Assembly: GCA_965368975.1 (NCBI GenBank)
Contig: CBDUPA010000013.1
Span: forward strand, 1-64,000
Length of the DNA: 64,000 nucleotides
Reading direction: 5' to 3'
Origin: an uncultured bacterium
GTDB lineage: Bacteria > Acidobacteriota > Thermoanaerobaculia > Multivoradales > JAHZIX01
The translations under genes and the position numbers were made by a program. This document shows, in pieces, positions 1-8,226 of this stretch. The notes beneath the pieces were generated by a model, which did not search any database, had not been told where the DNA came from, and saw nothing but the letters and a program-made list of their open reading frames with translations. Numbering within the stretch: the stretch's first letter is position 1; the number at the start of each line of letters is the position of its first letter.

Positions 1-161
1 TGGCTGCCGAAGGTCAGCCAGAGCCGCGACCGCCCGAGCTGGGCAGTCTTACTCGCATCCGCGTCACGTACGCGAACAAGCACAGCCTGATGGCGGAATT
101 GATCTCGGCTGCCGATGATGCACCGCGTCGTCCCGCTCCGCGCCTGCCCGTCGTCTCCTGA
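1..161 (+). CDS. miaB: 3' end of a TRAM-domain protein, probably tRNA methylthiotransferase MiaB (partial)
   Basis: Frame from position 3 reads ...LGSLTRIRVTYANKHSLMAEL...RLPVVS* (TGA 159-161), like a TRAM-domain end; miaB next to DUF151 is a common arrangement. Confidence 0.5.
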   Translation, partial: AAEGQPEPRPPELGSLTRIRVTYANKHSLMAELISAADDAPRRPAPRLPVVS

Positions 162-332: not shown

Positions 333-875
333 ATGAAGCAGTCACCTGAGGATTCGCACATGCCGCCCACCGAGCCCACGTTGGAGGATGAGATTGCCGT
401 CGAGATCAATGGTCTCATCTTGGACCCAAACACCAATGCTCCGATCCTGATCCTGCGCGAGCAGGGGAGCGCTAGCCTGCTGCCGATCTGGATCGGCCTC
501 TTCGAGGCCAACGCCATTGCCATGCGCATGGAAGGCAAGCAGGCCCCGCGGCCGATGACTCACGACCTGTTGCTCGAGGGGCTTCGACGTCTCGGAGGTA
601 CGGTGACAAAGGTGGTCATATGTGATCTGCGCGACAGTACCTTCTTCGCTGCTATCCACCTGCTGAGTGACAGTGGAGAAGAGCTGCAACTGGACTCCCG
701 CCCGAGCGATGCGATCGCCATGGCGCTACGTGCAGAAGCTCCGCTCTTCGTGAGCCGAAAGGTTCTCGATCAGGCCAAGCTCGCACAGCCCAATGAGGAT
801 CTCAGTGAAGAAGAGCGACTGAAGAAGTGGCTCGAAGATGCCAACCCAGAAGAGCTCGGAAAGTACACGATGTAG
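333..875 (+). CDS. Bifunctional nuclease family protein (DUF151)
   Basis: LPIWIGLFEANAIA, PRPMTHDLL and DSRPSDAIAMALR motifs. Confidence 0.92.
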   Translation: MKQSPEDSHMPPTEPTLEDEIAVEINGLILDPNTNAPILILREQGSASLLPIWIGLFEANAIAMRMEGKQAPRPMTHDLLLEGLRRLGGTVTKVVICDLRDSTFFAAIHLLSDSGEELQLDSRPSDAIAMALRAEAPLFVSRKVLDQAKLAQPNEDLSEEERLKKWLEDANPEELGKYTM

Positions 876-912
876 GTTCCACATCATGGTCTCGGGGCCA
901 AGCCGGCGGCAA

Positions 913-928
913 TGTCGGCGCGCCGACA
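913..928. repeat. 16-bp perfect palindrome TGTCGGCGCGCCGACA, copy 1 (candidate non-canonical parS)
   Basis: ATGTCGGCGCGCCGACAT at 912-929, upstream of parA. Confidence 0.75.
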
Positions 929-957
929 TGCAGGGTTCCAGATGCCGGCAGGACTAA

Positions 958-973
958 TGTCGGCGTGCCGACA
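958..973. repeat. Palindrome copy 2, TGTCGGCGTGCCGACA (candidate parS)
   Basis: AATGTCGGCGTGCCGACATT at 956-975, one mismatch to copy 1. Confidence 0.72.
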
Positions 974-1034
974 TTCGGCGAAGAGGGCGCGCGGAATAGG
1001 GGCAAGCCCCTTATTTATAATGGTTTAGAGCGAT

Positions 1035-1050
1035 TGTCGGCGCGCCGACG
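1035..1050. repeat. Palindrome copy 3, TGTCGGCGCGCCGACG (candidate parS)
   Basis: One mismatch to copy 1. Confidence 0.7.
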
Positions 1051-1171
1051 ACGAGGACTGGTGGGTTTCAAGGCTTTTCGTGTCTTGCCGTCCTGTCGAC
1101 AGAGTCCTCGCAGATCCCCCAGCAGGCAGCGCGGCGTCGGCACCCTGTCGGGGGATCTTCTAGGTCTGGTA

Positions 1172-1187
1172 TGTCGGCGCGCCGACA
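1172..1187. repeat. Palindrome copy 4, TGTCGGCGCGCCGACA (candidate parS)
   Basis: ATGTCGGCGCGCCGACAT at 1171-1188, identical to copy 1. Confidence 0.75.
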
Positions 1188-1303
1188 TGGATGGCGCCGC
1201 AGAAATGGCAACACCCGGAGCCCACTCGCAGGGTGCTGCGTCTACTGCCGGCGGAGAGAAGTCGAAAATCTCGACAATCTCTGCCAATGTCATCGCTTCT
1301 GTC

Positions 1304-1333
1304 TTGACCCTTCGGACGGTCGTTGCATACACT
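1304..1333 (+). promoter_or_regulatory. Putative sigma70 promoter of parAB
   Basis: TTGACC (1304-1309), 18-bp spacer, TACACT (1328-1333), 11 nt before the ATG at 1345. Confidence 0.5.
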
Positions 1334-1344
1334 CGCCCTTGCCC

Positions 1345-2103
1345 ATGATTATCGCGATCACCAATCAGAAAGGCGGCGTCGGCAAGACCACGACCGCCAT
1401 CAATCTAAGCGCCGCACTGGCCAGCAAGGGGCTACGTACCCTGCTGGTAGACATGGATCCTCAGGCCAACAGCTCGATGTCATTCATCGACGTTCATGAG
1501 GTCGAGGTATCCATGTACGAAGTTCTTACCGATCCCGAGATCTCGATCGAGCAAATCCTGCGGTCGGCGAACAAGCAACCTCATCTCGACATCGCACCAG
1601 CACGGATCAGCCTGGCGAAGATCGAGGCCAAGCTGCTCGGAGAGATCGACAACCAATACCGCTTGAAGGACGAGCTGGAGGCCCTTGTCGGTCGCTACGA
1701 CGTCATCATCATCGACACGCCGCCAACCCTGGGGATCATCACGGTGAATGCGCTGGTCGCCGCGACTCACGTGCTGGTGCCCATCCAAGCGAGCTACTTT
1801 GCGCTCGAAGGGACGGATGATCTGCTGGAGACGATCGACAAGATCAAGGCGCGGTCCAATCCTCAGTTGCAGATTCTCGGAGCGCTGATCACACTGTTCG
1901 ACAAGCGCACCCTGCTGGCGAAGGATATTCATGACCAGATGTCCGAAGTGTTCGGCGACAAGCTCTTCGAGACAGTCATCACCAAGAGTGTCCGGCTGGA
2001 GGAGAGTCCCGCCTATCGCGAGTCCGTCTTCACCTTCGCGCCAACGTCGTCAGGTGCCGAGGAGTACTACAAGCTGTCTGAGGAGATCATGACCCGTGTC
2101 TAA
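1345..2103 (+). CDS. parA: ParA/Soj family partition ATPase
   Basis: MIIAITNQKGGVGKTTT deviant Walker A, DMDPQAN, IIDTPP and VRLEESP motifs; start placed at ATG 1345. Confidence 0.95.
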   Translation: MIIAITNQKGGVGKTTTAINLSAALASKGLRTLLVDMDPQANSSMSFIDVHEVEVSMYEVLTDPEISIEQILRSANKQPHLDIAPARISLAKIEAKLLGEIDNQYRLKDELEALVGRYDVIIIDTPPTLGIITVNALVAATHVLVPIQASYFALEGTDDLLETIDKIKARSNPQLQILGALITLFDKRTLLAKDIHDQMSEVFGDKLFETVITKSVRLEESPAYRESVFTFAPTSSGAEEYYKLSEEIMTRV

Positions 2104-3040
2104 TGCTGTACCTCGCCGCCGTGGCTTGCCGCCGGGGAAGAAGATGCGTCACACCGCGCATTTTGTGGATGAACTGGAACCCCGCGCCAATGTGATCATC
2201 GATCCGGATTCGATCGTCGGGCGCAAGGTCTCCCTTTCCATGCTGGAGCCGGATCCGAAGCAGCCGCGCACCAACATGGGAGATCTGGCGGAGCTGGTCG
2301 CTTCGATTCGTGAGAAGGGCGTGCTGGAGCCAATTCTGGTGCGTCGCGTCGGTGAGGGCGGTTCCGGCGAGGGGCGTGCGAACGATGGCGGACCGGCCCG
2401 AGCACTGCCATCACGTGCCGGAGAAAGCTCCGTCAGTTATCGCATTATTTCCGGAGAGCGTAGATACCGCGCGGCACAGGAAGCTGGGTTGTCGCAGGTG
2501 CCGGTCATCGAGATGGATGTCGACGAACAGGAAGCGCTCGAGATCGCCCTGATCGAGAACCTGCAGCGGAAGGATCTGACCGCCTTCGAAGAGGCGGAAG
2601 GCTATGCCGCACTCGGTGAACAGTACGGCTATACCCATGAGCAGGTCGCGCATGCGGTCAGCAAGTCCCGGACGGTGGTTACTGAGAGCTTGACCTTGCT
2701 GCAGATCCCGAAACGCGTGCGGGAGATCGCCGACGGTCTCGGGGTACGTTCGAAGTCGGTCTTGCTCGAGGTGTGTAAGGCGGAGTCCGAGGACGAGATG
2801 GTCTATCTACTGGAAGCCGTCGCGAGCCAGGGACTCAGCCGTGATGACTTGCGGCGGAGGTTTCGCCAGGATCGCACGAAGCGCGGCGGACGGCGCAAGA
2901 AGCCATACGTCTTCAAGTTTCGTGCACCTGACAAGCGCTACAGCTTGTCGCTGAGTTTCCGTCAGAGTACCGTCGAGAAGCACGATCTGATCGAGGCTCT
3001 CGAGCAGATCTTGGTAGATCTGCGTCAGTCGAAAGACTGA
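2096..3040 (+). CDS. parB: ParB/Spo0J family protein
   Basis: QPR, GVLEPILVR, ISGERRYRAA CTPase box, IENLQRKDL, then an HTH; overlaps the parA stop. Confidence 0.95.
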   Translation: MSNAVPRRRGLPPGKKMRHTAHFVDELEPRANVIIDPDSIVGRKVSLSMLEPDPKQPRTNMGDLAELVASIREKGVLEPILVRRVGEGGSGEGRANDGGPARALPSRAGESSVSYRIISGERRYRAAQEAGLSQVPVIEMDVDEQEALEIALIENLQRKDLTAFEEAEGYAALGEQYGYTHEQVAHAVSKSRTVVTESLTLLQIPKRVREIADGLGVRSKSVLLEVCKAESEDEMVYLLEAVASQGLSRDDLRRRFRQDRTKRGGRRKKPYVFKFRAPDKRYSLSLSFRQSTVEKHDLIEALEQILVDLRQSKD

Positions 3041-3130
3041 GGTTCCTCACATGGTTGAGATCTCGGGAGTCTGAGGTCTTGGGCTGGCACCTTGCTCCTG
3101 GCACGATGCAGGTTTCTCAGCGCGTATTCA

Positions 3131-3158
3131 GAGTCCGATAAGTTGTATTATGTAAACC
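3131..3158. other. dif: XerC/XerD dif recombination site
   Basis: GAGTCCGATAA-GTTGTA-TTATGTAAACC has the 11-6-11 layout; right arm is 10/11 identical to the B. subtilis arm TTATGTAAACT; left arm ends in CCGATAA; AT-rich intergenic spot. Confidence 0.82.
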
Positions 3159-3234
3159 TAGATTCAGGTATGGAACTGTTGGCTGTTCCTGGGCTCGGAT
3201 TCTGGATTCCGCAGCTGGTACAATCCCCCGTCTG

Positions 3235-5667
3235 ATGCGTCGTCTCGACTGGTACCTGCTGCGTGAGATTCTGGGCCCGATGTTCTTGGGTTTCATGGTC
3301 TATACCTTCCTGCTGCTGCTGCAGTTCCTGTTCAGCTCAGCGGACATGGTGATTCAGCGCGGCCTCGATCTGGCGACCGTCGGGCGGATGCTGGCACTGG
3401 TGATTCCCAGCTCGGTCGTGCTGACGATCCCGATGGCGTTGCTGTTCGGCATTCTGATCGCCGTCGGCCGATTGTCGTCAGACAGTGAACTCGTGGCGAT
3501 GCGCTCGTGCGGGATCAGTCTGTTGAGCATGTATCGGCCGGTGCTCTTGCTGTCGGGCACGCTGACGGTGCTCAACGTCTGGCTGATGGTCGACGTGCTT
3601 CCCCATGGCAACCACCGCTTGCAGCAGCTCAACCTGGAGATTTTGACGACCAGCGTGTCGAAACAGGTAGAGCCGCGGGTGTTCTATGAGGAGTGGGACG
3701 GCAAGATCCTCTATGTCTTCGAGTCGCCCCCGGGTGACCCGCGCTGGAAGGGGGTGTTCGTCGCCAATGTCAACGACAAGGGCCTGACCAACGAGGTGGT
3801 CGTCGCTGAATGGGGCGAAGTGCGGGTGGACGACGACGGTGAGCGCGTGGTGCTACTGCTTGAGAATGCGACTACGCACACCGCCAACCTCGAGCAGCCG
3901 GGTAGCTACAACGTCTCGCATCACGCTCGCCTGGAGACGGTATTGGAGGACGGCTTCACGACGAACCGTCGGGCCAAGATCTCGGCCTCCAAGAGTGTTC
4001 GAGAGATGGATCTGGCCGAATTGCTGACGCGCTCCCGAGATCCGCGGACGTCTCCAGAACTGCGCAATCTGGCACGGGTCCAGTTGCACAAGAGCTTTGC
4101 TATCCCGGCGGCCTGCCTGGTCTTCGGCCTGCTGGCCTTGCCACTCGGCTTCAGTAACCGGCGAGGTGGCAAGGCATCTGGCTTTGCCTTGTCGATCGGT
4201 GTATTGCTGGTCTACTGGGTGATGCTGAGCAACGGCGAGGAAGCGGCTCGCTACGGCAAGTTGCCGGCGTGGTTCTCGATGTGGCTGCCCAACGTCCTGC
4301 TGACCGCTATCGGCATCTTCTTGTTGGTACGACGCAATCGCGACAAGAGCCTGATGCTGTCGCGCATCGACCGCTTCCTGCGCGAGGATCTGTGGGCCGG
4401 AATTCTGCGCTTGCAGCGGTGGCGGAAGGAGCGCCCCAAGAAGGGCGCGGCAGGCAAACGAGGGCGGCGCTCGGTGGTAAGGATCGGTGCAGGACACGGA
4501 GCCCCCGGTGACCGGCGTGACGGGAACCGCATCGTGTTACGACTCCCCCACCTGCGCCTGGCCTTCCCCAACCTCATGGATCGCTACGTCGTGCAGGTGT
4601 TCTTCCGGACCATGCTCTTGGTGGCTGCCAGTGTGGTGACGCTGTATATCGTTGCCGACCTGGGCGAGCACGTCGATGAGATCCTCAAGAACAAGGTGCC
4701 GCGCGCCGTCATCTTCGACTACTACAAGTTCCTGTCACTGCAGATCATCTACGATATCTCCCCCATCGTCGTCCTGGTGACGACGCTGATCACCTTCAGC
4801 TTGCTGACGCGTACCAACGAGATCACGGCGCTGAAAGCTTCGGGGGTCAGCCTTTTCCGCCTTTCGGTGCCGGCGGTTGTTTCGGCGCTACTGGTGACGG
4901 GCGGCTGCGTCTACCTGCAGTCCGAGGTGCTGCCATCGACCAACCAGCGGGTAGCTCAGCTGAAAGACCGGATCAAGGGGCGAGAGCAGGCGCGCACCTA
5001 CCGGCGTGCCGATCGGCAGTGGCTGTTCGGTGAGGGACGCTATGTGTACAACTACACGCGCTATGACGCCGGACGGCGGGAGCTGCGCGACTTGCAGGTC
5101 TTCGAGTTTGGCGATGACTTCGGTCTCACCCGCCGGCTGTACACGCAGCGTGCTCGCTACCAGCAGGGCACGACCTCCGAGGAGTCGTACTGGATTTTCG
5201 AAGGTGGCTGGAAGCGGGCCTTCGATGGCTTGGTGATCCGTGGTTTCGAGATTTTCGATGGCCCACGCCGGAGCGATTACGCCGAAACGCCGGAGTACTT
5301 CAGCTCCGAGATCCGGCCGCCGGAACAGATGAGTTATCTCGAGCTGGAGGGCTACGTCGAGGAGTTGGAGGACCGGGGCCAGGCCGTTCCCGAGTTGCGC
5401 GTCCAACTGCACAGCAAGATCTCCTTCCCCGCCATCTCGCTGATCATGTGCATGGTCGCCCTCCCCTTCGCCTTCCGTATGGGCCGGCAGGGAACGCTCT
5501 ACAGCGTCGGTCTGTCTGTGGTCCTCGGCATGGTGTTCATGGCCATCTACATTCTGTTCAGTACGTTGGGAGAGGCGGGGGCATTGCCCCCTCTGCTCGC
5601 TGTCTGGAGCCCGAACGCGGTGTTCGGCGTCTTTGCGCTCTACCTCTTCTTGGGTGTCCGTACCTAG
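3235..5667 (+). CDS. lptFG: Fused LPS export permease LptF-LptG
   Basis: Two YjgP/YjgQ modules: MRRLDWYLLRE...GRLSSDSELVAMRSCGIS and LMDRYV...NEITALKASGVS. Confidence 0.9.
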   Translation: MRRLDWYLLREILGPMFLGFMVYTFLLLLQFLFSSADMVIQRGLDLATVGRMLALVIPSSVVLTIPMALLFGILIAVGRLSSDSELVAMRSCGISLLSMYRPVLLLSGTLTVLNVWLMVDVLPHGNHRLQQLNLEILTTSVSKQVEPRVFYEEWDGKILYVFESPPGDPRWKGVFVANVNDKGLTNEVVVAEWGEVRVDDDGERVVLLLENATTHTANLEQPGSYNVSHHARLETVLEDGFTTNRRAKISASKSVREMDLAELLTRSRDPRTSPELRNLARVQLHKSFAIPAACLVFGLLALPLGFSNRRGGKASGFALSIGVLLVYWVMLSNGEEAARYGKLPAWFSMWLPNVLLTAIGIFLLVRRNRDKSLMLSRIDRFLREDLWAGILRLQRWRKERPKKGAAGKRGRRSVVRIGAGHGAPGDRRDGNRIVLRLPHLRLAFPNLMDRYVVQVFFRTMLLVAASVVTLYIVADLGEHVDEILKNKVPRAVIFDYYKFLSLQIIYDISPIVVLVTTLITFSLLTRTNEITALKASGVSLFRLSVPAVVSALLVTGGCVYLQSEVLPSTNQRVAQLKDRIKGREQARTYRRADRQWLFGEGRYVYNYTRYDAGRRELRDLQVFEFGDDFGLTRRLYTQRARYQQGTTSEESYWIFEGGWKRAFDGLVIRGFEIFDGPRRSDYAETPEYFSSEIRPPEQMSYLELEGYVEELEDRGQAVPELRVQLHSKISFPAISLIMCMVALPFAFRMGRQGTLYSVGLSVVLGMVFMAIYILFSTLGEAGALPPLLAVWSPNAVFGVFALYLFLGVRT

Positions 5668-7419: not shown

Positions 7420-8226
7420 ATGATTACAAGTCTTCAGAACGAGACGCTCAAGCGTATTCGCCGATTGCGCCGCTGTAAAGGGGAGCATGCCTTGCTGGAG
7501 GGACCGAACCTGCTGGGCGAGGCGCTGGATGGGGGGCAGCTGCCGGAAACGGTGCTCATGACCCTGGAGTTGGCCGAGACTCCGGAGGGGGCGCAGCTGG
7601 CCGCCCGTCTCGCTGCGCCGCCACGTCTGGTGGCTGAGCAGGTGCTGGAGCGGGTGATGGACGCGGACTCTCCTCGCGGAGTTCTGGCGGTGGTCAAGTT
7701 GCCGCGTGGCGGTATCCAGGTTCTGCCGCAGGTGGACGCAGGTGTCTATGTATATGTCGACGGCTTGCAGGACCCGGGCAACCTCGGCGCCCTGGCACGC
7801 GTTGCCGAAGCGGCAGGGGCCCAGGGGCTGGCGCTGGCAGCTGGCTGCGTGCATCCCAACCATCCGCGAGCGTTGCGCGCCTCGGCAGGCAGCTTGCTGC
7901 GCTTGCCCGTGGCGTTGGGGGTCGGCGTCAAGGAGCTGGACGCGCATCTTCAGACAAGCGGTTCTGAGTCGGCACGCTGGCTGGCCTTGGAACCTCGGGA
8001 CGGTGTTTCGCTCTACCAGGCACCGCTCGAGGCCGGAACGCTGGTTCTGGCGTTGGGTGCCGAGGGACCTGGACTGTCCGTGGAGGTACGTCGGCGCGCC
8101 GACGTTCACCTGACGATCCCGATGGTGGCGCCGGTCGAGTCGCTGAATGCCGTGGTCGCCGCGGCGCTGGTGCTCTTCGAGGCACGTCGGCAGCGTTCTG
8201 CAGTGCTCTCCGCAAGAGACTGCTGA
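7420..8226 (+). CDS. TrmH/SpoU family RNA methyltransferase
   Basis: MITSLQNE, LQDPGNLGALAR, LGAEGPGLS and IPM...VESLNA SPOUT motifs. Confidence 0.92.
   Translation: MITSLQNETLKRIRRLRRCKGEHALLEGPNLLGEALDGGQLPETVLMTLELAETPEGAQLAARLAAPPRLVAEQVLERVMDADSPRGVLAVVKLPRGGIQVLPQVDAGVYVYVDGLQDPGNLGALARVAEAAGAQGLALAAGCVHPNHPRALRASAGSLLRLPVALGVGVKELDAHLQTSGSESARWLALEPRDGVSLYQAPLEAGTLVLALGAEGPGLSVEVRRRADVHLTIPMVAPVESLNAVVAAALVLFEARRQRSAVLSARDC
8089..8104. repeat. Palindrome copy 5, CGTCGGCGCGCCGACG, inside the TrmH gene (candidate parS)
   Basis: ACGTCGGCGCGCCGACGT at 8088-8105 is a perfect 18-bp palindrome with the same 14-bp core. Confidence 0.45.

Follow-up and report, generated by a model that had tools for sequence, protein, structure and literature searches.

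The window analyzed here is the whole 64,000-nt stretch at the start of contig CBDUPA010000013.1 (C13 of this genome, G000), and the locus of interest lies close to its beginning. It contains a gene pair coding for a ParA ATPase and a ParB protein, named here parA2 and parB2, with a cluster of 16-bp palindromes (parS2) ahead of the pair and a dif site behind it:

333..875, plus strand: BFN/DUF151 (bifunctional nuclease domain) gene, Pfam PF02577 (1.8e-39), the conserved upstream neighbor of parA2
913..928, strand not given: parS2 site 1, an exact copy of TGTCGGCGCGCCGACA
958..973, strand not given: parS2 site 2, TGTCGGCGTGCCGACA, half-sites intact, with a change in the free central dinucleotide
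1035..1050, strand not given: parS2 site 3, TGTCGGCGCGCCGACG, one outer mismatch
1172..1187, strand not given: parS2 site 4, an exact copy of TGTCGGCGCGCCGACA, 158 nt before the parA2 start
1304..1333, plus strand: sigma-70-like promoter match TTGACC-18-TACACT between the last parS2 site and parA2, a consensus match only
1345..2103, plus strand: parA2, a deviant Walker-A ParA ATPase of 252 aa, Pfam AAA_31 (9.5e-58) and CbiA
2096..3040, plus strand: parB2, a ParB/Spo0J-type CTP-clamp protein of 314 aa, Pfam ParB_N (3.1e-25) and HTH_ParB (6.4e-14), TIGR00180 (6.2e-41)
3132..3159, plus strand: dif, a 28-bp XerC/D-type 11-6-11 site, AGTCCGATAAGTTGTATTATGTAAACCT, unique in the genome and at the skew switch
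3235..5667, plus strand: fused lptF-lptG gene, the conserved downstream neighbor, given for context only
8089..8104, strand not given: outlying parS2-like site CGTCGGCGCGCCGACG, 14-bp core intact

A first-pass annotation had described four 16-bp palindromes upstream of parA, an intact parA-parB operon, and a 28-bp dif site about 90 bp after the parB stop codon, and all three descriptions held. Two of the palindromes are exact and two carry one mismatch, the domain matches support the operon, and the GTG start of parB2 overlaps the end of parA2 by 8 bp, an arrangement of translational coupling, while dif (3132-3159) begins 91 nt past the parB2 stop. The absence of dnaA from the window was also confirmed, the gene being on contig C9. 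The minus-strand orientation noted for most housekeeping genes between 17 and 64 kb amounts to only a moderate bias, with 20 of 32 heuristically called ORFs in that orientation.

ParA2 has the deviant Walker A motif (KGGxGK[ST]) with the signature lysine that defines this type of ATPase. Residues N7, Q8, K9, G10, G11, V12, G13, K14, T15, T16 and T17 are invariant in 41 ParA2 sequences, and 104 of the 252 positions are at least 90% conserved in 57 orthologs, including the NQKGGVGKTTT stretch (mean column identity of 65% in alignment A2). The gene is more conserved than parB2. In the tree, the ParA2 clade is separate from that of ParA1, the ParA of the canonical system described below, although the tree has two flaws: it places two saturated rows, which belong to a third ParA-like type (branch length 10), within ParA2, and it groups the ParA of a replicon 2 (branch length 10) with ParA1. 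We therefore rely on the split itself (SH-aLRT 91) and on the difference in identity (57-78% versus 37-43%). A search of a plasmid database recovered no close homolog of ParA2, the best identity being at most 45%.

ParB2 fulfills what is expected of a ParB, that is, a ParB_N domain with the GERRxR and ENLQR boxes plus an HTH, and in Pfam and NCBIfam it matches ParB families only. It keeps the CTP-binding motifs GERRxRAA and ENLQRxDL, the QPR box and the HTH; 41 sequences show no variation at G120-E121-R122-R123, E154-N155, R158 and Q56-P57-R58, and residues 86-113 form a low-complexity insert. The structure model (mean pLDDT 85) has the Myxococcus xanthus ParB bound to CDP as its top fold match, with KorB and Noc structures also among the matches and Noc among the best. 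A branch with an SH-aLRT of 95 has all of the 59 ParB2 sequences in the tree on the same side; two others were left out of alignments and tree, one (L089) with an in-frame stop under the chosen start and one (L097) cut off at 197 aa near a contig end. The clade has its own N-terminal motif, KRGLP-x4-MRHD-x-HFVEEL, where the ParB1 of the same genome has KRGLGRGLDAL. As for ParA2, no close homolog was found in the plasmid database (best identity at most 38%). A complex model that combined ParA2 as a dimer, ATP and the first 45 residues of ParB2 (alignments A2 and A1) scored 0.29 against a mark of 0.32 without controls, and we count it neither for nor against binding.

The palindromes are very scarce in this genome. 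Allowing two mismatches, TGTCGGCGCGCCGACA has five matches in the window against 0.10 expected from shuffles, and none of 100 shuffles reached five. With at most one mismatch, the whole 7,125,974-bp genome contains only the four window sites and one more at C3:443811, about 6.5 kb upstream of the locus across a contig gap. The shorter GTCGGCNNGCCGAC core occurs nine times, seven of them within about 20 kb around the junction between the end of C3 and the start of C13. The locus thus has what is required of the site component of a ParABS system, a few palindromic centromere-type sites near the par operon, their binding by ParB2 being inferred. No canonical parS was found in the window. The canonical site TGTTTCACGTGAAACA and parS2 are both 16-bp palindromes with outer TGT...ACA, but the inner 10 bp differ.

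Several lines of evidence place the locus at the replication terminus. A dif weight matrix built from the sites of 20 relatives, with the genome's own site excluded, gave 45.4 bits for the site beside parB2 and 12.8 bits for the next best in the genome, so the first-pass proviso that a better dif might exist elsewhere was not borne out. The genome also codes for XerD (340.6 bits, above the cut-off) and has a second Xer-like recombinase gene (291.9 bits). A single 28-bp 11-6-11 site at the skew switch in a genome with Xer genes is what defines a dif, and the site here has these features; recombination itself is inferred. Synteny connects contig C3 (mean skew +0.042) to C13 (-0.036), and once the two are joined, the cumulative GC-skew maximum falls in the 20-kb bin containing dif, as the first-pass annotation had proposed to check. 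Two closed relatives from different classes (G137 and G302) show the same switch from plus to minus at parAB2, and the distance between parAB2 and dnaA is 0.416-0.50 genome lengths in all 25 single-contig relatives (G024, G056 and G237, with chromosomes split over contigs, were left out of these figures).

A second, canonical parAB, also foreseen in the first-pass annotation, is indeed present in the genome. This parAB1 lies at C9:151652-153336, 65 kb from dnaA (C9:217 kb), and two canonical parS sites adjoin it (C9:154644 and 154692). In five of five closed genomes ParB1 is 11-29 kb from dnaA. At no more than one mismatch, canonical parS was found in only one of five closed relatives (G348), which makes it unusable for mapping the origin, so the positions of ParB1 and dnaA were used instead. 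The parAB2 locus has neither the origin-proximal location nor the canonical parS of the usual chromosomal system.

The order BFN-parA2-parB2-dif-lptFG recurs throughout much of the phylum Acidobacteriota, so that the gene order that the first-pass annotation had suggested comparing in related genomes is conserved far beyond close relatives. The BFN gene is directly upstream of parA2/parB2 in 21 of 22 loci from the same order, 19 of 19 from the same class (outside this count is L087, G140:C1:1-16000, which contains no match) and 18 of 20 from other classes. A dif site is present in 21 of the 22 same-order loci and in 30 of the 39 others; the weight matrix found none within 12-16 kb in 9 of the 20 other-class loci, so tight linkage to dif is not universal. 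Of the 301 genomes sampled from the phylum, ParB2 was detected in 176 and ParA2 in 165, while 118 had ParB1-level matches only and seven had none, which indicates that many lineages can do without the second system. Genomes that are related do not count as independent observations, and the tallies include seven genomes flagged as unpublished (G004, G104, G135, G175, G179, G246 and G341), from which no loci were taken and which support nothing beyond these tallies. The nearest protein clusters in the Atlas are mostly from Acidobacteriota.

The sites are also restricted to the terminus in the relatives. Exact TGTCGGCNNGCCGACA (TGTCGGC-NN-GCCGACA) occurs 19 times in 15 closed or nearly closed genomes, always in the terminus region: every copy is no more than 363 kb from parAB2, and 17 of the 19 are no more than 76 kb from it. 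A control with the reversed pattern had no exact match in the 10 genomes to which it was applied. As exact copies are confined to the terminus in 12 of the 12 closed or nearly closed genomes with any copy, we read the palindrome as a genuine, separate centromere-type site, which is shown as far as a terminus-restricted sequence is concerned, the loading of ParB2 on it being inferred. The number and spread of sites vary, with five over 130 kb of the terminus in G302 and four over 53 kb in G348. Family f12 has no site in the operon, only single exact sites 23 and 231 kb away, and a search for an alternative palindrome shared by its loci found none.

Eleven genomes from four families (g5, f27, f42 and f89) code for ParB2 without ParA2, and since 165 and 11 add up to the 176 ParB2-positive genomes, there is no genome with ParA2 only. 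In all 11, ParB2 lacks the N-terminal motif: the profile match begins at position 31-32, compared with positions 1-4 in the 150 other matches examined, one per genome and all of them at the ParB2 level. The joint loss of parA2 and the motif is shown, and gives only indirect support to the inferred role of the N-terminal peptide in stimulating the ParA2 ATPase. In the genus g5, ParB2 has retained both its CTP motifs and its C-terminal domain, and the core GTCGGCCGGCCGAC is found 2-10 times per genome, spread in a matS-like fashion over approximately 0.4-1.2 Mb. Of these 66 sites, 62 lie no farther than 500 kb from parB2, and 65 no farther than 725 kb; the reversed pattern, used as a control, matched 11 times, at positions not known. 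Because 11 genomes keep ParB2 and its sites without ParA2, movement driven by ParA2 cannot be the whole function.

Taken together, the locus is likely to be a terminus-specific ParABS system (ParABS2) that acts beside the usual origin-proximal one. Its parts, terminus location, restricted sites, and phylum-wide conservation are shown; its function is inferred, without experimental or expression evidence, and this applies to the binding of ParB2 to parS2, CTP clamping, the stimulation of ParA2 and the cellular outcome. A search for sequencing runs containing this DNA returned no RNA run and a single DNA run, with a share of 0.05 of the sampled words. The first-pass suggestion of a second partition system with its own centromere at the terminus is thus supported in location, sites and conservation. 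In the mechanism that we propose, the 16-bp sites clustered within some 20 kb around dif would be where ParB2 loads as a CTP-dependent clamp, and from them it would spread over the neighboring DNA, so that dif, 2 kb off, would fall inside the ParB2 zone. ParA2, as a nucleoid-binding Walker ATPase, would be stimulated by the N-terminal motif of ParB2 and, by analogy with plasmids and other ParA cargoes, would place the single ParB2 cargo at mid-nucleoid before termination and push the two copies apart afterwards. The predicted outcome is that the terminus and dif are brought to the division plane and that sister termini are helped apart.

ParABS systems are known as segregation machines of origins or plasmids, and the handling of the terminus is ascribed to unrelated factors of restricted distribution, such as MatP, ZapT, RefZ or FtsK with XerCD; to our knowledge, no terminus-organizing factor has been identified for most bacterial phyla. 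We found no description of a terminus ParABS in the literature searched, including the terminus passages of a review (PMC7022226), and neither the palindrome nor three variants of it appear in any paper searched, nor did a search on DUF151 give any link to ParAB. Within these limits, the first-pass remark that no such system was known still stands. The conserved neighborhood and the dedicated sites at dif probably point, by inference, to an undescribed way of handling the end region of the chromosome.

ParABS2 shares much with chromosomal ParABS (Soj/Spo0J), namely, the protein families, the Walker-A ParA, the ParB_N, HTH and C-terminal domains, the GERRxR and ENLQR CTP motifs, a site often inside parB, and a coupled parA-parB operon, but it differs in being at the terminus beside dif, in its N-terminal motif, and in coexisting with the origin system. 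MatP/matS of enterobacteria and vibrios is similar in site distribution only, in that a sequence-specific protein has sites confined to the terminus around dif. The protein families and folds of MatP and ParB2 are not known to be related, and, unlike MatP, most lineages with ParABS2 have one to seven tightly clustered sites and a ParA partner, with a spreading CTP clamp expected instead of site-bound dimers. Noc/NBS of Bacillota is likewise a ParB paralog with changed DNA specificity and retained CTP motifs that works beside a canonical ParB. Noc binds membranes, has no known ParA partner, and has sites throughout the chromosome that are scarce at the terminus. ParB2, in contrast, has sites only at the terminus and a dedicated ParA2 in 165 of 176 ParB2-positive genomes, and it reaches only 133 bits with the NCBIfam nucleoid_noc model (cut-off 315), so that an identity as Noc was rejected.

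The systems of plasmids and secondary replicons, such as ParAB2/parS2 of Vibrio chromosome 2, are also second, orthogonal systems with their own centromere sequence and probably share the mechanics of positioning a single cargo on the nucleoid; the difference is that here both systems are on the same replicon, at origin and terminus of single closed chromosomes. Finally, in MipZ-ParB (Caulobacter) and PomXYZ (Myxococcus), a ParA-family ATPase places a landmark relative to the division plane via the nucleoid or ParB, and the host of ParABS2 resembles these in being without Min. They depend on the ParB of the origin or on a cluster of proteins, unlike ParA2 with its putatively terminus-bound ParB2, and a tie of ParA2/ParB2 to FtsZ is conjectural.

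The most serious competing explanation, which we nevertheless consider unlikely, is that ParB2-parS2 is mainly an organizer of the terminus domain or a landmark coupled to division, with ParA2 as an accessory. ParB2 would then condense or mark the terminus, communicate with FtsK/XerCD, SMC or the divisome, and time or place division, similarly to MatP/matS, a reversed Noc, or the logic of PomXYZ/MipZ. In its favor are the survival of ParB2 after the loss of ParA2 in 11 of 176 genomes with no case of the reverse, the g5 sites spread around parB2 in the absence of parA2, the CTP motifs and C-terminal domain retained by the g5 protein, and the lack in the present genome of MinC and of any MinD above the family cut-off. 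Against it, parA2 is kept in 165 of 176 genomes, is translationally coupled, and is more conserved than parB2, which argues for an essential role of ParA2 where it is present; any link to the divisome, SMC or FtsK is conjecture without data.

Less plausible still, and in our opinion very unlikely, is that the palindromes are mere operators and ParB2 a KorB-like autorepressor or local transcription factor whose terminus location is incidental. Autoregulation of par operons at the centromere is common in plasmids, the four sites in the window lie between the BFN gene and the promoter-like match of parA2, and KorB is among the fold and sequence matches of ParB2. This reading does not explain the many families in which the sole site is part of the parB2 coding sequence, some 1.3 kb beyond the start of parA2, the sites tens of kilobases off on both sides of the operon in G302 and G348, the up to 10 sites over about 1 Mb in g5, or a location opposite dnaA in 25 of 25 closed genomes. 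The remaining possibility, that a plasmid or a Xer-exploiting integrative element (IMEX) once inserted at dif and left the locus behind as a relic without any chromosomal role, can be almost completely discarded. dif is an integration site for such elements, and the operon is compact with its own centromere, but there is no second flanking dif (second-best matrix scores are at most 10.4 in the loci and 12.8 in this genome), the BFN/lptFG synteny is phylum-wide and looks vertical, neither ParB2 (at most 38%) nor ParA2 (at most 45%) has a close plasmid homolog, and ParA2 is under strong purifying conservation. With one dif per locus, the hallmarks of an IMEX or integrated plasmid (two flanking dif sites or a patchy, mobile spread) are absent.

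Returning to the terminus-specific ParABS that we favor, it would, if true, provide a large and ecologically dominant soil phylum with a terminus factor, a dedicated ParABS with an embedded dif. The CTP clamp formed by ParB and the gradient motor formed by ParA would have been put to a new use at the other pole of the chromosome, giving a natural pair of orthogonal ParB/parS systems, and the lineages without parA2, with their sites spread in the manner of matS, would offer a natural experiment in going from partition complex to domain organizer. A bolder reading, toward which we remain tentative and lean slightly against, is that one chromosome is served by two orthogonal ParABS systems, one for origins and one for the terminus, and that the lineages without ParA2 have converted ParB2 into a MatP-like organizer. 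If so, this lineage would rely on ParB2/ParA2 to keep the terminus and dif at the plane of division and then to part the sister termini, the same device might also act as a division-site cue in cells without Min, and the conversion, by multiplication of sites over about 1 Mb, would be an observable path from partition motor to domain organizer.

The four sites directly upstream of parA2 in the window could possibly also serve autoregulation. Across the phylum, the position of parS2 varies and yet stays with the operon, upstream of parA2, inside parB2, or downstream of parB2. Inside parB2 the site encodes C-R-x-A-D, and in a lineage of 35% GC its central ATG is the start codon of parB2.

The locus opens contig C13, whose first 64 kb form the window, in a genome (G000) of 7,125,974 bp, 59 contigs, and 65% GC. 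The four palindromes, parA-parB pair, and 28-bp dif site described in the first-pass annotation all held as written. We call the system ParABS2 (parA2, parB2, and the centromere-like site parS2), as distinct from ParABS1 near the origin.

Features of the locus (window coordinates)
333-875, BFN/DUF151 (bifunctional nuclease domain) gene, preceding the palindromes
Starts 913, 958, 1035, and 1172, four copies of the palindrome TGTCGGCGCGCCGACA, two exact and two with one change
1345-2103, parA2 (Pfam AAA_31, 9.5e-58)
2096-3040, parB2 (ParB_N, HTH_ParB, and TIGR00180, 6.2e-41)
3132-3159, dif-like 28-mer AGTCCGATAAGTTGTATTATGTAAACCT, 91 nt past the parB2 stop
3235-5667, fused lptFG (810 aa), after dif, both NCBIfam equivalogs over their cutoffs

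The parA2 and parB2 genes overlap by 8 bp. At up to two mismatches, the palindrome occurs five times in the window against 0.10 expected, and at up to one mismatch the whole genome contains only the window's four copies and one at C3:443811.

Four lines of evidence place this locus at the replication terminus (ter), namely a contig join combined with GC skew, the skew of two closed relatives, the distance to dnaA, and the existence of a separate origin system. The genes found upstream of BFN in relatives, miaB among others, map to the final 20 kb of contig C3 and, because C3 ends in poly-G inside miaB, we infer that C3(+) runs on into C13(+). The miaB gene is broken between the two contigs, with a run of ~19 G inside it at the end of C3 and the rest of it at window positions 1-160; a homopolymer artifact, and not a replicon end, accounts for the assembly breaking at the terminus. 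Mean GC skew is +0.042 in C3 and -0.036 in C13, and the cumulative skew of the joined contigs reaches its maximum in the 20-kb bin holding dif, so that the skew inflection anticipated near the locus by the first-pass annotation was indeed there. This reading assumes the usual G-rich leading strand, an assumption consistent with where dnaA and ParB1 lie. In G137, a closed genome of the same order (5,224,191 bp), skew stays positive between dnaA (0.893 Mb) and 3.52 Mb and turns negative from there on, with a cumulative maximum at 3.514-3.534 Mb, a region containing parS2 (3,532,264), parB2 (3,533,113-3,533,964), and the single dif (3,534,100). In G302, closed, of 6.49 Mb, and from a different class, the sign flips somewhere between the 900-920 kb sample and the 940-960 kb sample (2 of 20 samples were off-trend), with parAB2 at 928-930 kb and dnaA at 4.0 Mb. 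The distance between parAB2 and dnaA was 0.416-0.50 of the genome in all 25 single-contig genomes (18 of the same order, some with rounded sizes, plus 3 of the same class and 4 of other classes with exact sizes) and 0.44-0.49 in six further genomes with both genes on one large contig.

The dif assignment was evaluated with a weight matrix trained on sites from 20 relatives, excluding the window's own site. That site scores 45.4 bits against 12.8 bits for the runner-up in the whole of G000, and the case that would have refuted the locus, a better dif elsewhere, was not met there. In 21 of 22 same-order loci, parB2 and lptFG have a dif of the same type between them, in either orientation, and such a site is present within a few kilobases downstream of parB2 in 19/19 other loci of the class and 11/20 of other classes; as the matrix was trained on one order, diverged sites may escape it. 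The site is unique in G137 and in G193, another closed relative.

The origin is served by its own canonical ParABS. A second, canonical parAB with parS near dnaA had been proposed as a check, and we found it on contig C9 of G000, with parA1/parB1 at C9:151,652-153,336, two canonical parS sites at C9:154,644 and C9:154,692, and dnaA at C9:217 kb. ParB1 is located 11-29 kb from dnaA in five closed relatives. Canonical parS was not found at up to one mismatch in four of five closed relatives (G137, G193, G302, and G287); ParB1 adjoins dnaA in all five tested, and the origin centromere sequence could conceivably have drifted in those four lineages. A third, very divergent ParA-like/ParB-like pair (~29% identical to ParA1 and 36-39% to ParB1) is present elsewhere on the chromosome in G193 (L114, C1:3772001-3778000) and G137 (L115, C1:49001-55000).

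The components of ParABS2 are bona fide members of the ParABS family. Across 41 ParB2 sequences, the QPR box, GERRxRAA, and EIALIENLQRKDL are invariant or nearly so. ParB2 also retains an HTH, reading GKSRTxITESL versus GKARTTVTNSL in G000 ParB1, and a beta-beta-alpha C-terminal domain. The top Foldseek matches of the AlphaFold model (mean pLDDT 85) were Myxococcus xanthus ParB-CDP and ParB-CTPγS, with Noc, Caulobacter ParB, and KorB ranking next. The N terminus carries a clade-specific motif, KRGLP-x4-MRHD-x-HFVEEL (G10, L11, P12, H22, and V24 invariant), whose ParB1 counterpart is KRGLGRGLDAL. Residues 86-113 of the window's ParB2 (window:2351-2434) form a low-complexity insert of ~28 residues, rich in Gly, Ala, Ser, and Arg, that splits ParB_N, is missing from most orthologs, and is modeled with low confidence. 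Conservation of ParA2 is unusually high: 104 of 252 positions are at least 90% identical over 57 orthologs, which share 57-78% identity with the window's protein, compared with 37-43% for ParA1. In the ParB tree, a branch with SH-aLRT 95 has all 59 ParB2 sequences on the same side, and the 57 ParA2 sequences split from ParA1 (branch length 1.58, SH-aLRT 91), except for two rows of the third ParA-like type, which have saturated branches. The best identities in a plasmid database (ParB2, ≤38%; ParA2, ≤45%) were no better than those to chromosomal ParAB.

The unit TGTCGGC-NN-GCCGACA is kept across the phylum and accompanies the operon, with a variable position. It is upstream of parA2 or BFN in the window's order (in L092 and L093, upstream of BFN and not between BFN and parA2), inside parB2 in many families, where it encodes Cys-Arg-x-Ala-Asp and the unconstrained NN at its center is the third codon's wobble, and, in families f40 and f22, downstream of parB2 by ~370 bp. 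In two loci of family f42 (L116 and L117, 35% GC), the exact GC-rich TGTCGGCATGCCGACA is kept in an AT-rich genome, its central ATG starting a parB2 that is shortened at the N terminus and has no parA2 beside it. Among 15 closed or nearly closed genomes, 12 contain exact parS2 (19 sites), 17 of these sites no more than 76 kb from parAB2 and the remaining two at 231 and 363 kb; with the pattern reversed as a control, the ten genomes searched by exact matching gave zero. On both flanks of the operon, G302 carries five sites spread across 130 kb and G348, another relative, four across 53 kb, and in G000 7 of 9 GTCGGCNNGCCGAC cores are within ~20 kb around the C3/C13 junction. Canonical parS clusters around oriC, a pattern that parS2 mirrors around ter. 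A parS2-like CGTCGGCACGCCGACA also occurs away from the terminus at G000:C32:25288-25303, on a 48-kb contig of 57.5% GC, perhaps by chance or within a mobile element.

We considered two other readings. The palindromes might be simple operators of the operon, which those located in the coding region or tens of kilobases off cannot be. The module next to dif might be an integrative element exploiting Xer (IMEX), which is disfavored as no second dif-like site flanking it was found. A terminus partition system remains our preferred reading.

The order BFN-parA2-parB2 is kept in 21/22 loci of the same order, 19/19 of the same class, and 18/20 of other classes, so the conservation of gene order that the first-pass annotation proposed to test held across the phylum's sampled loci. 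BFN/DUF151 is directly upstream of parA2 in 58/61 loci (window plus L006-L107), which may reflect either a functional link or merely frozen synteny; no DUF151-ParAB link was found in the literature searched, at listing level only. Downstream of dif, lptFG is the conserved neighbor in loci of the window's class and in roughly half of the remaining ones. When 301 evenly sampled genomes of the phylum were searched with a ParB2 profile, 176 gave strong matches (E ≤ 3e-72), 118 gave only ParB1-level matches (E ≥ 6.7e-58), and 7 gave no match; ParA2-level matches (E ≤ 2.5e-77) came from 165; the tallies take in seven genomes flagged unpublished, and many genomes are metagenome assembled. Eleven genomes have only ParB2, from genus g5 (5) and families f27 (3), f42 (2), and f89 (1). 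In all 11 the match begins at profile position 31-32, the N-terminal motif being gone, with the CTP motifs and C-terminal domain retained; in each of 150 listed ParB2-level matches (one per genome) it starts at 1-4. The joint loss of motif and parA2 is our main argument for reading the motif as the ParA2-activating peptide, a role that we consider likely, although inferred. In 12 closed g5 genomes, the core GTCGGCCGGCCGAC is present 2-10 times per genome (66 in total), 62/66 within 500 kb of parB2, 65/66 within 725 kb, and one 2 Mb off. The reversed control had 11 matches at positions not known, and the g5 genomes are closely related, so their counts cannot be treated as independent. This spread is a matS-like distribution.

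In established ParABS systems, parS is where ParB dimers load; once closed as CTP clamps, they slide along the DNA for kilobases, and nucleoid-bound ParA-ATP is fired by their N-terminal peptides. A lone ParA cargo comes to rest mid-nucleoid, and two repel each other to quarter positions. By analogy, ParB2 would load at the parS2 sites around dif, and as dif is only 2 kb from them, we infer that it is within the ParB2 complex. In this most likely mechanism, ParA2 would keep the complex at mid-nucleoid, the future septum, and, after termination, decatenation, and XerCD/FtsK action, help to separate the two copies. As ParB2 persists without ParA2, ParB2-parS2 must also have a ParA-independent role, possibly in compacting ter or as a landmark that FtsK/XerCD, SMC, or the divisome could use. 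In G000 (99.3% complete), MinC_C had no match and MinD none that passed the family cutoff, so a part in choosing the division site is conceivable. The evidence is entirely computational, and each of these functional steps is inferred.

ParABS2 differs from canonical ParABS, with which it coexists on one chromosome, in site sequence, N-terminal motif, and location at ter beside dif. MatP/matS, to which the locus had been likened, is among the nearest functional analogs, but MatP is an unrelated protein. The other nearest functional analogs, orthogonal plasmid and secondary-chromosome ParABS, act on a different replicon. Noc comes closest as a precedent for a chromosomal ParB paralog with changed specificity, but has the opposite site distribution. 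No description of a terminus ParABS or of the palindrome was found in the literature searched (incompletely, mainly listings and abstracts), and ParABS2 at ter is apparently, and probably, undescribed.

Finally, G000 codes for XerD (340.6 bits, over the cutoff) and a second Xer-like recombinase. Over a dozen further paralogs of the Xer-like tyrosine recombinase type (~107-117 bits to the XerD model, matching positions ~55-271) are on contigs C28, C37, C41, C46, C49-C51, C54-C57, and C15, mostly small and of 55-62% GC versus 65%, a pattern suggestive of repeated mobile elements.
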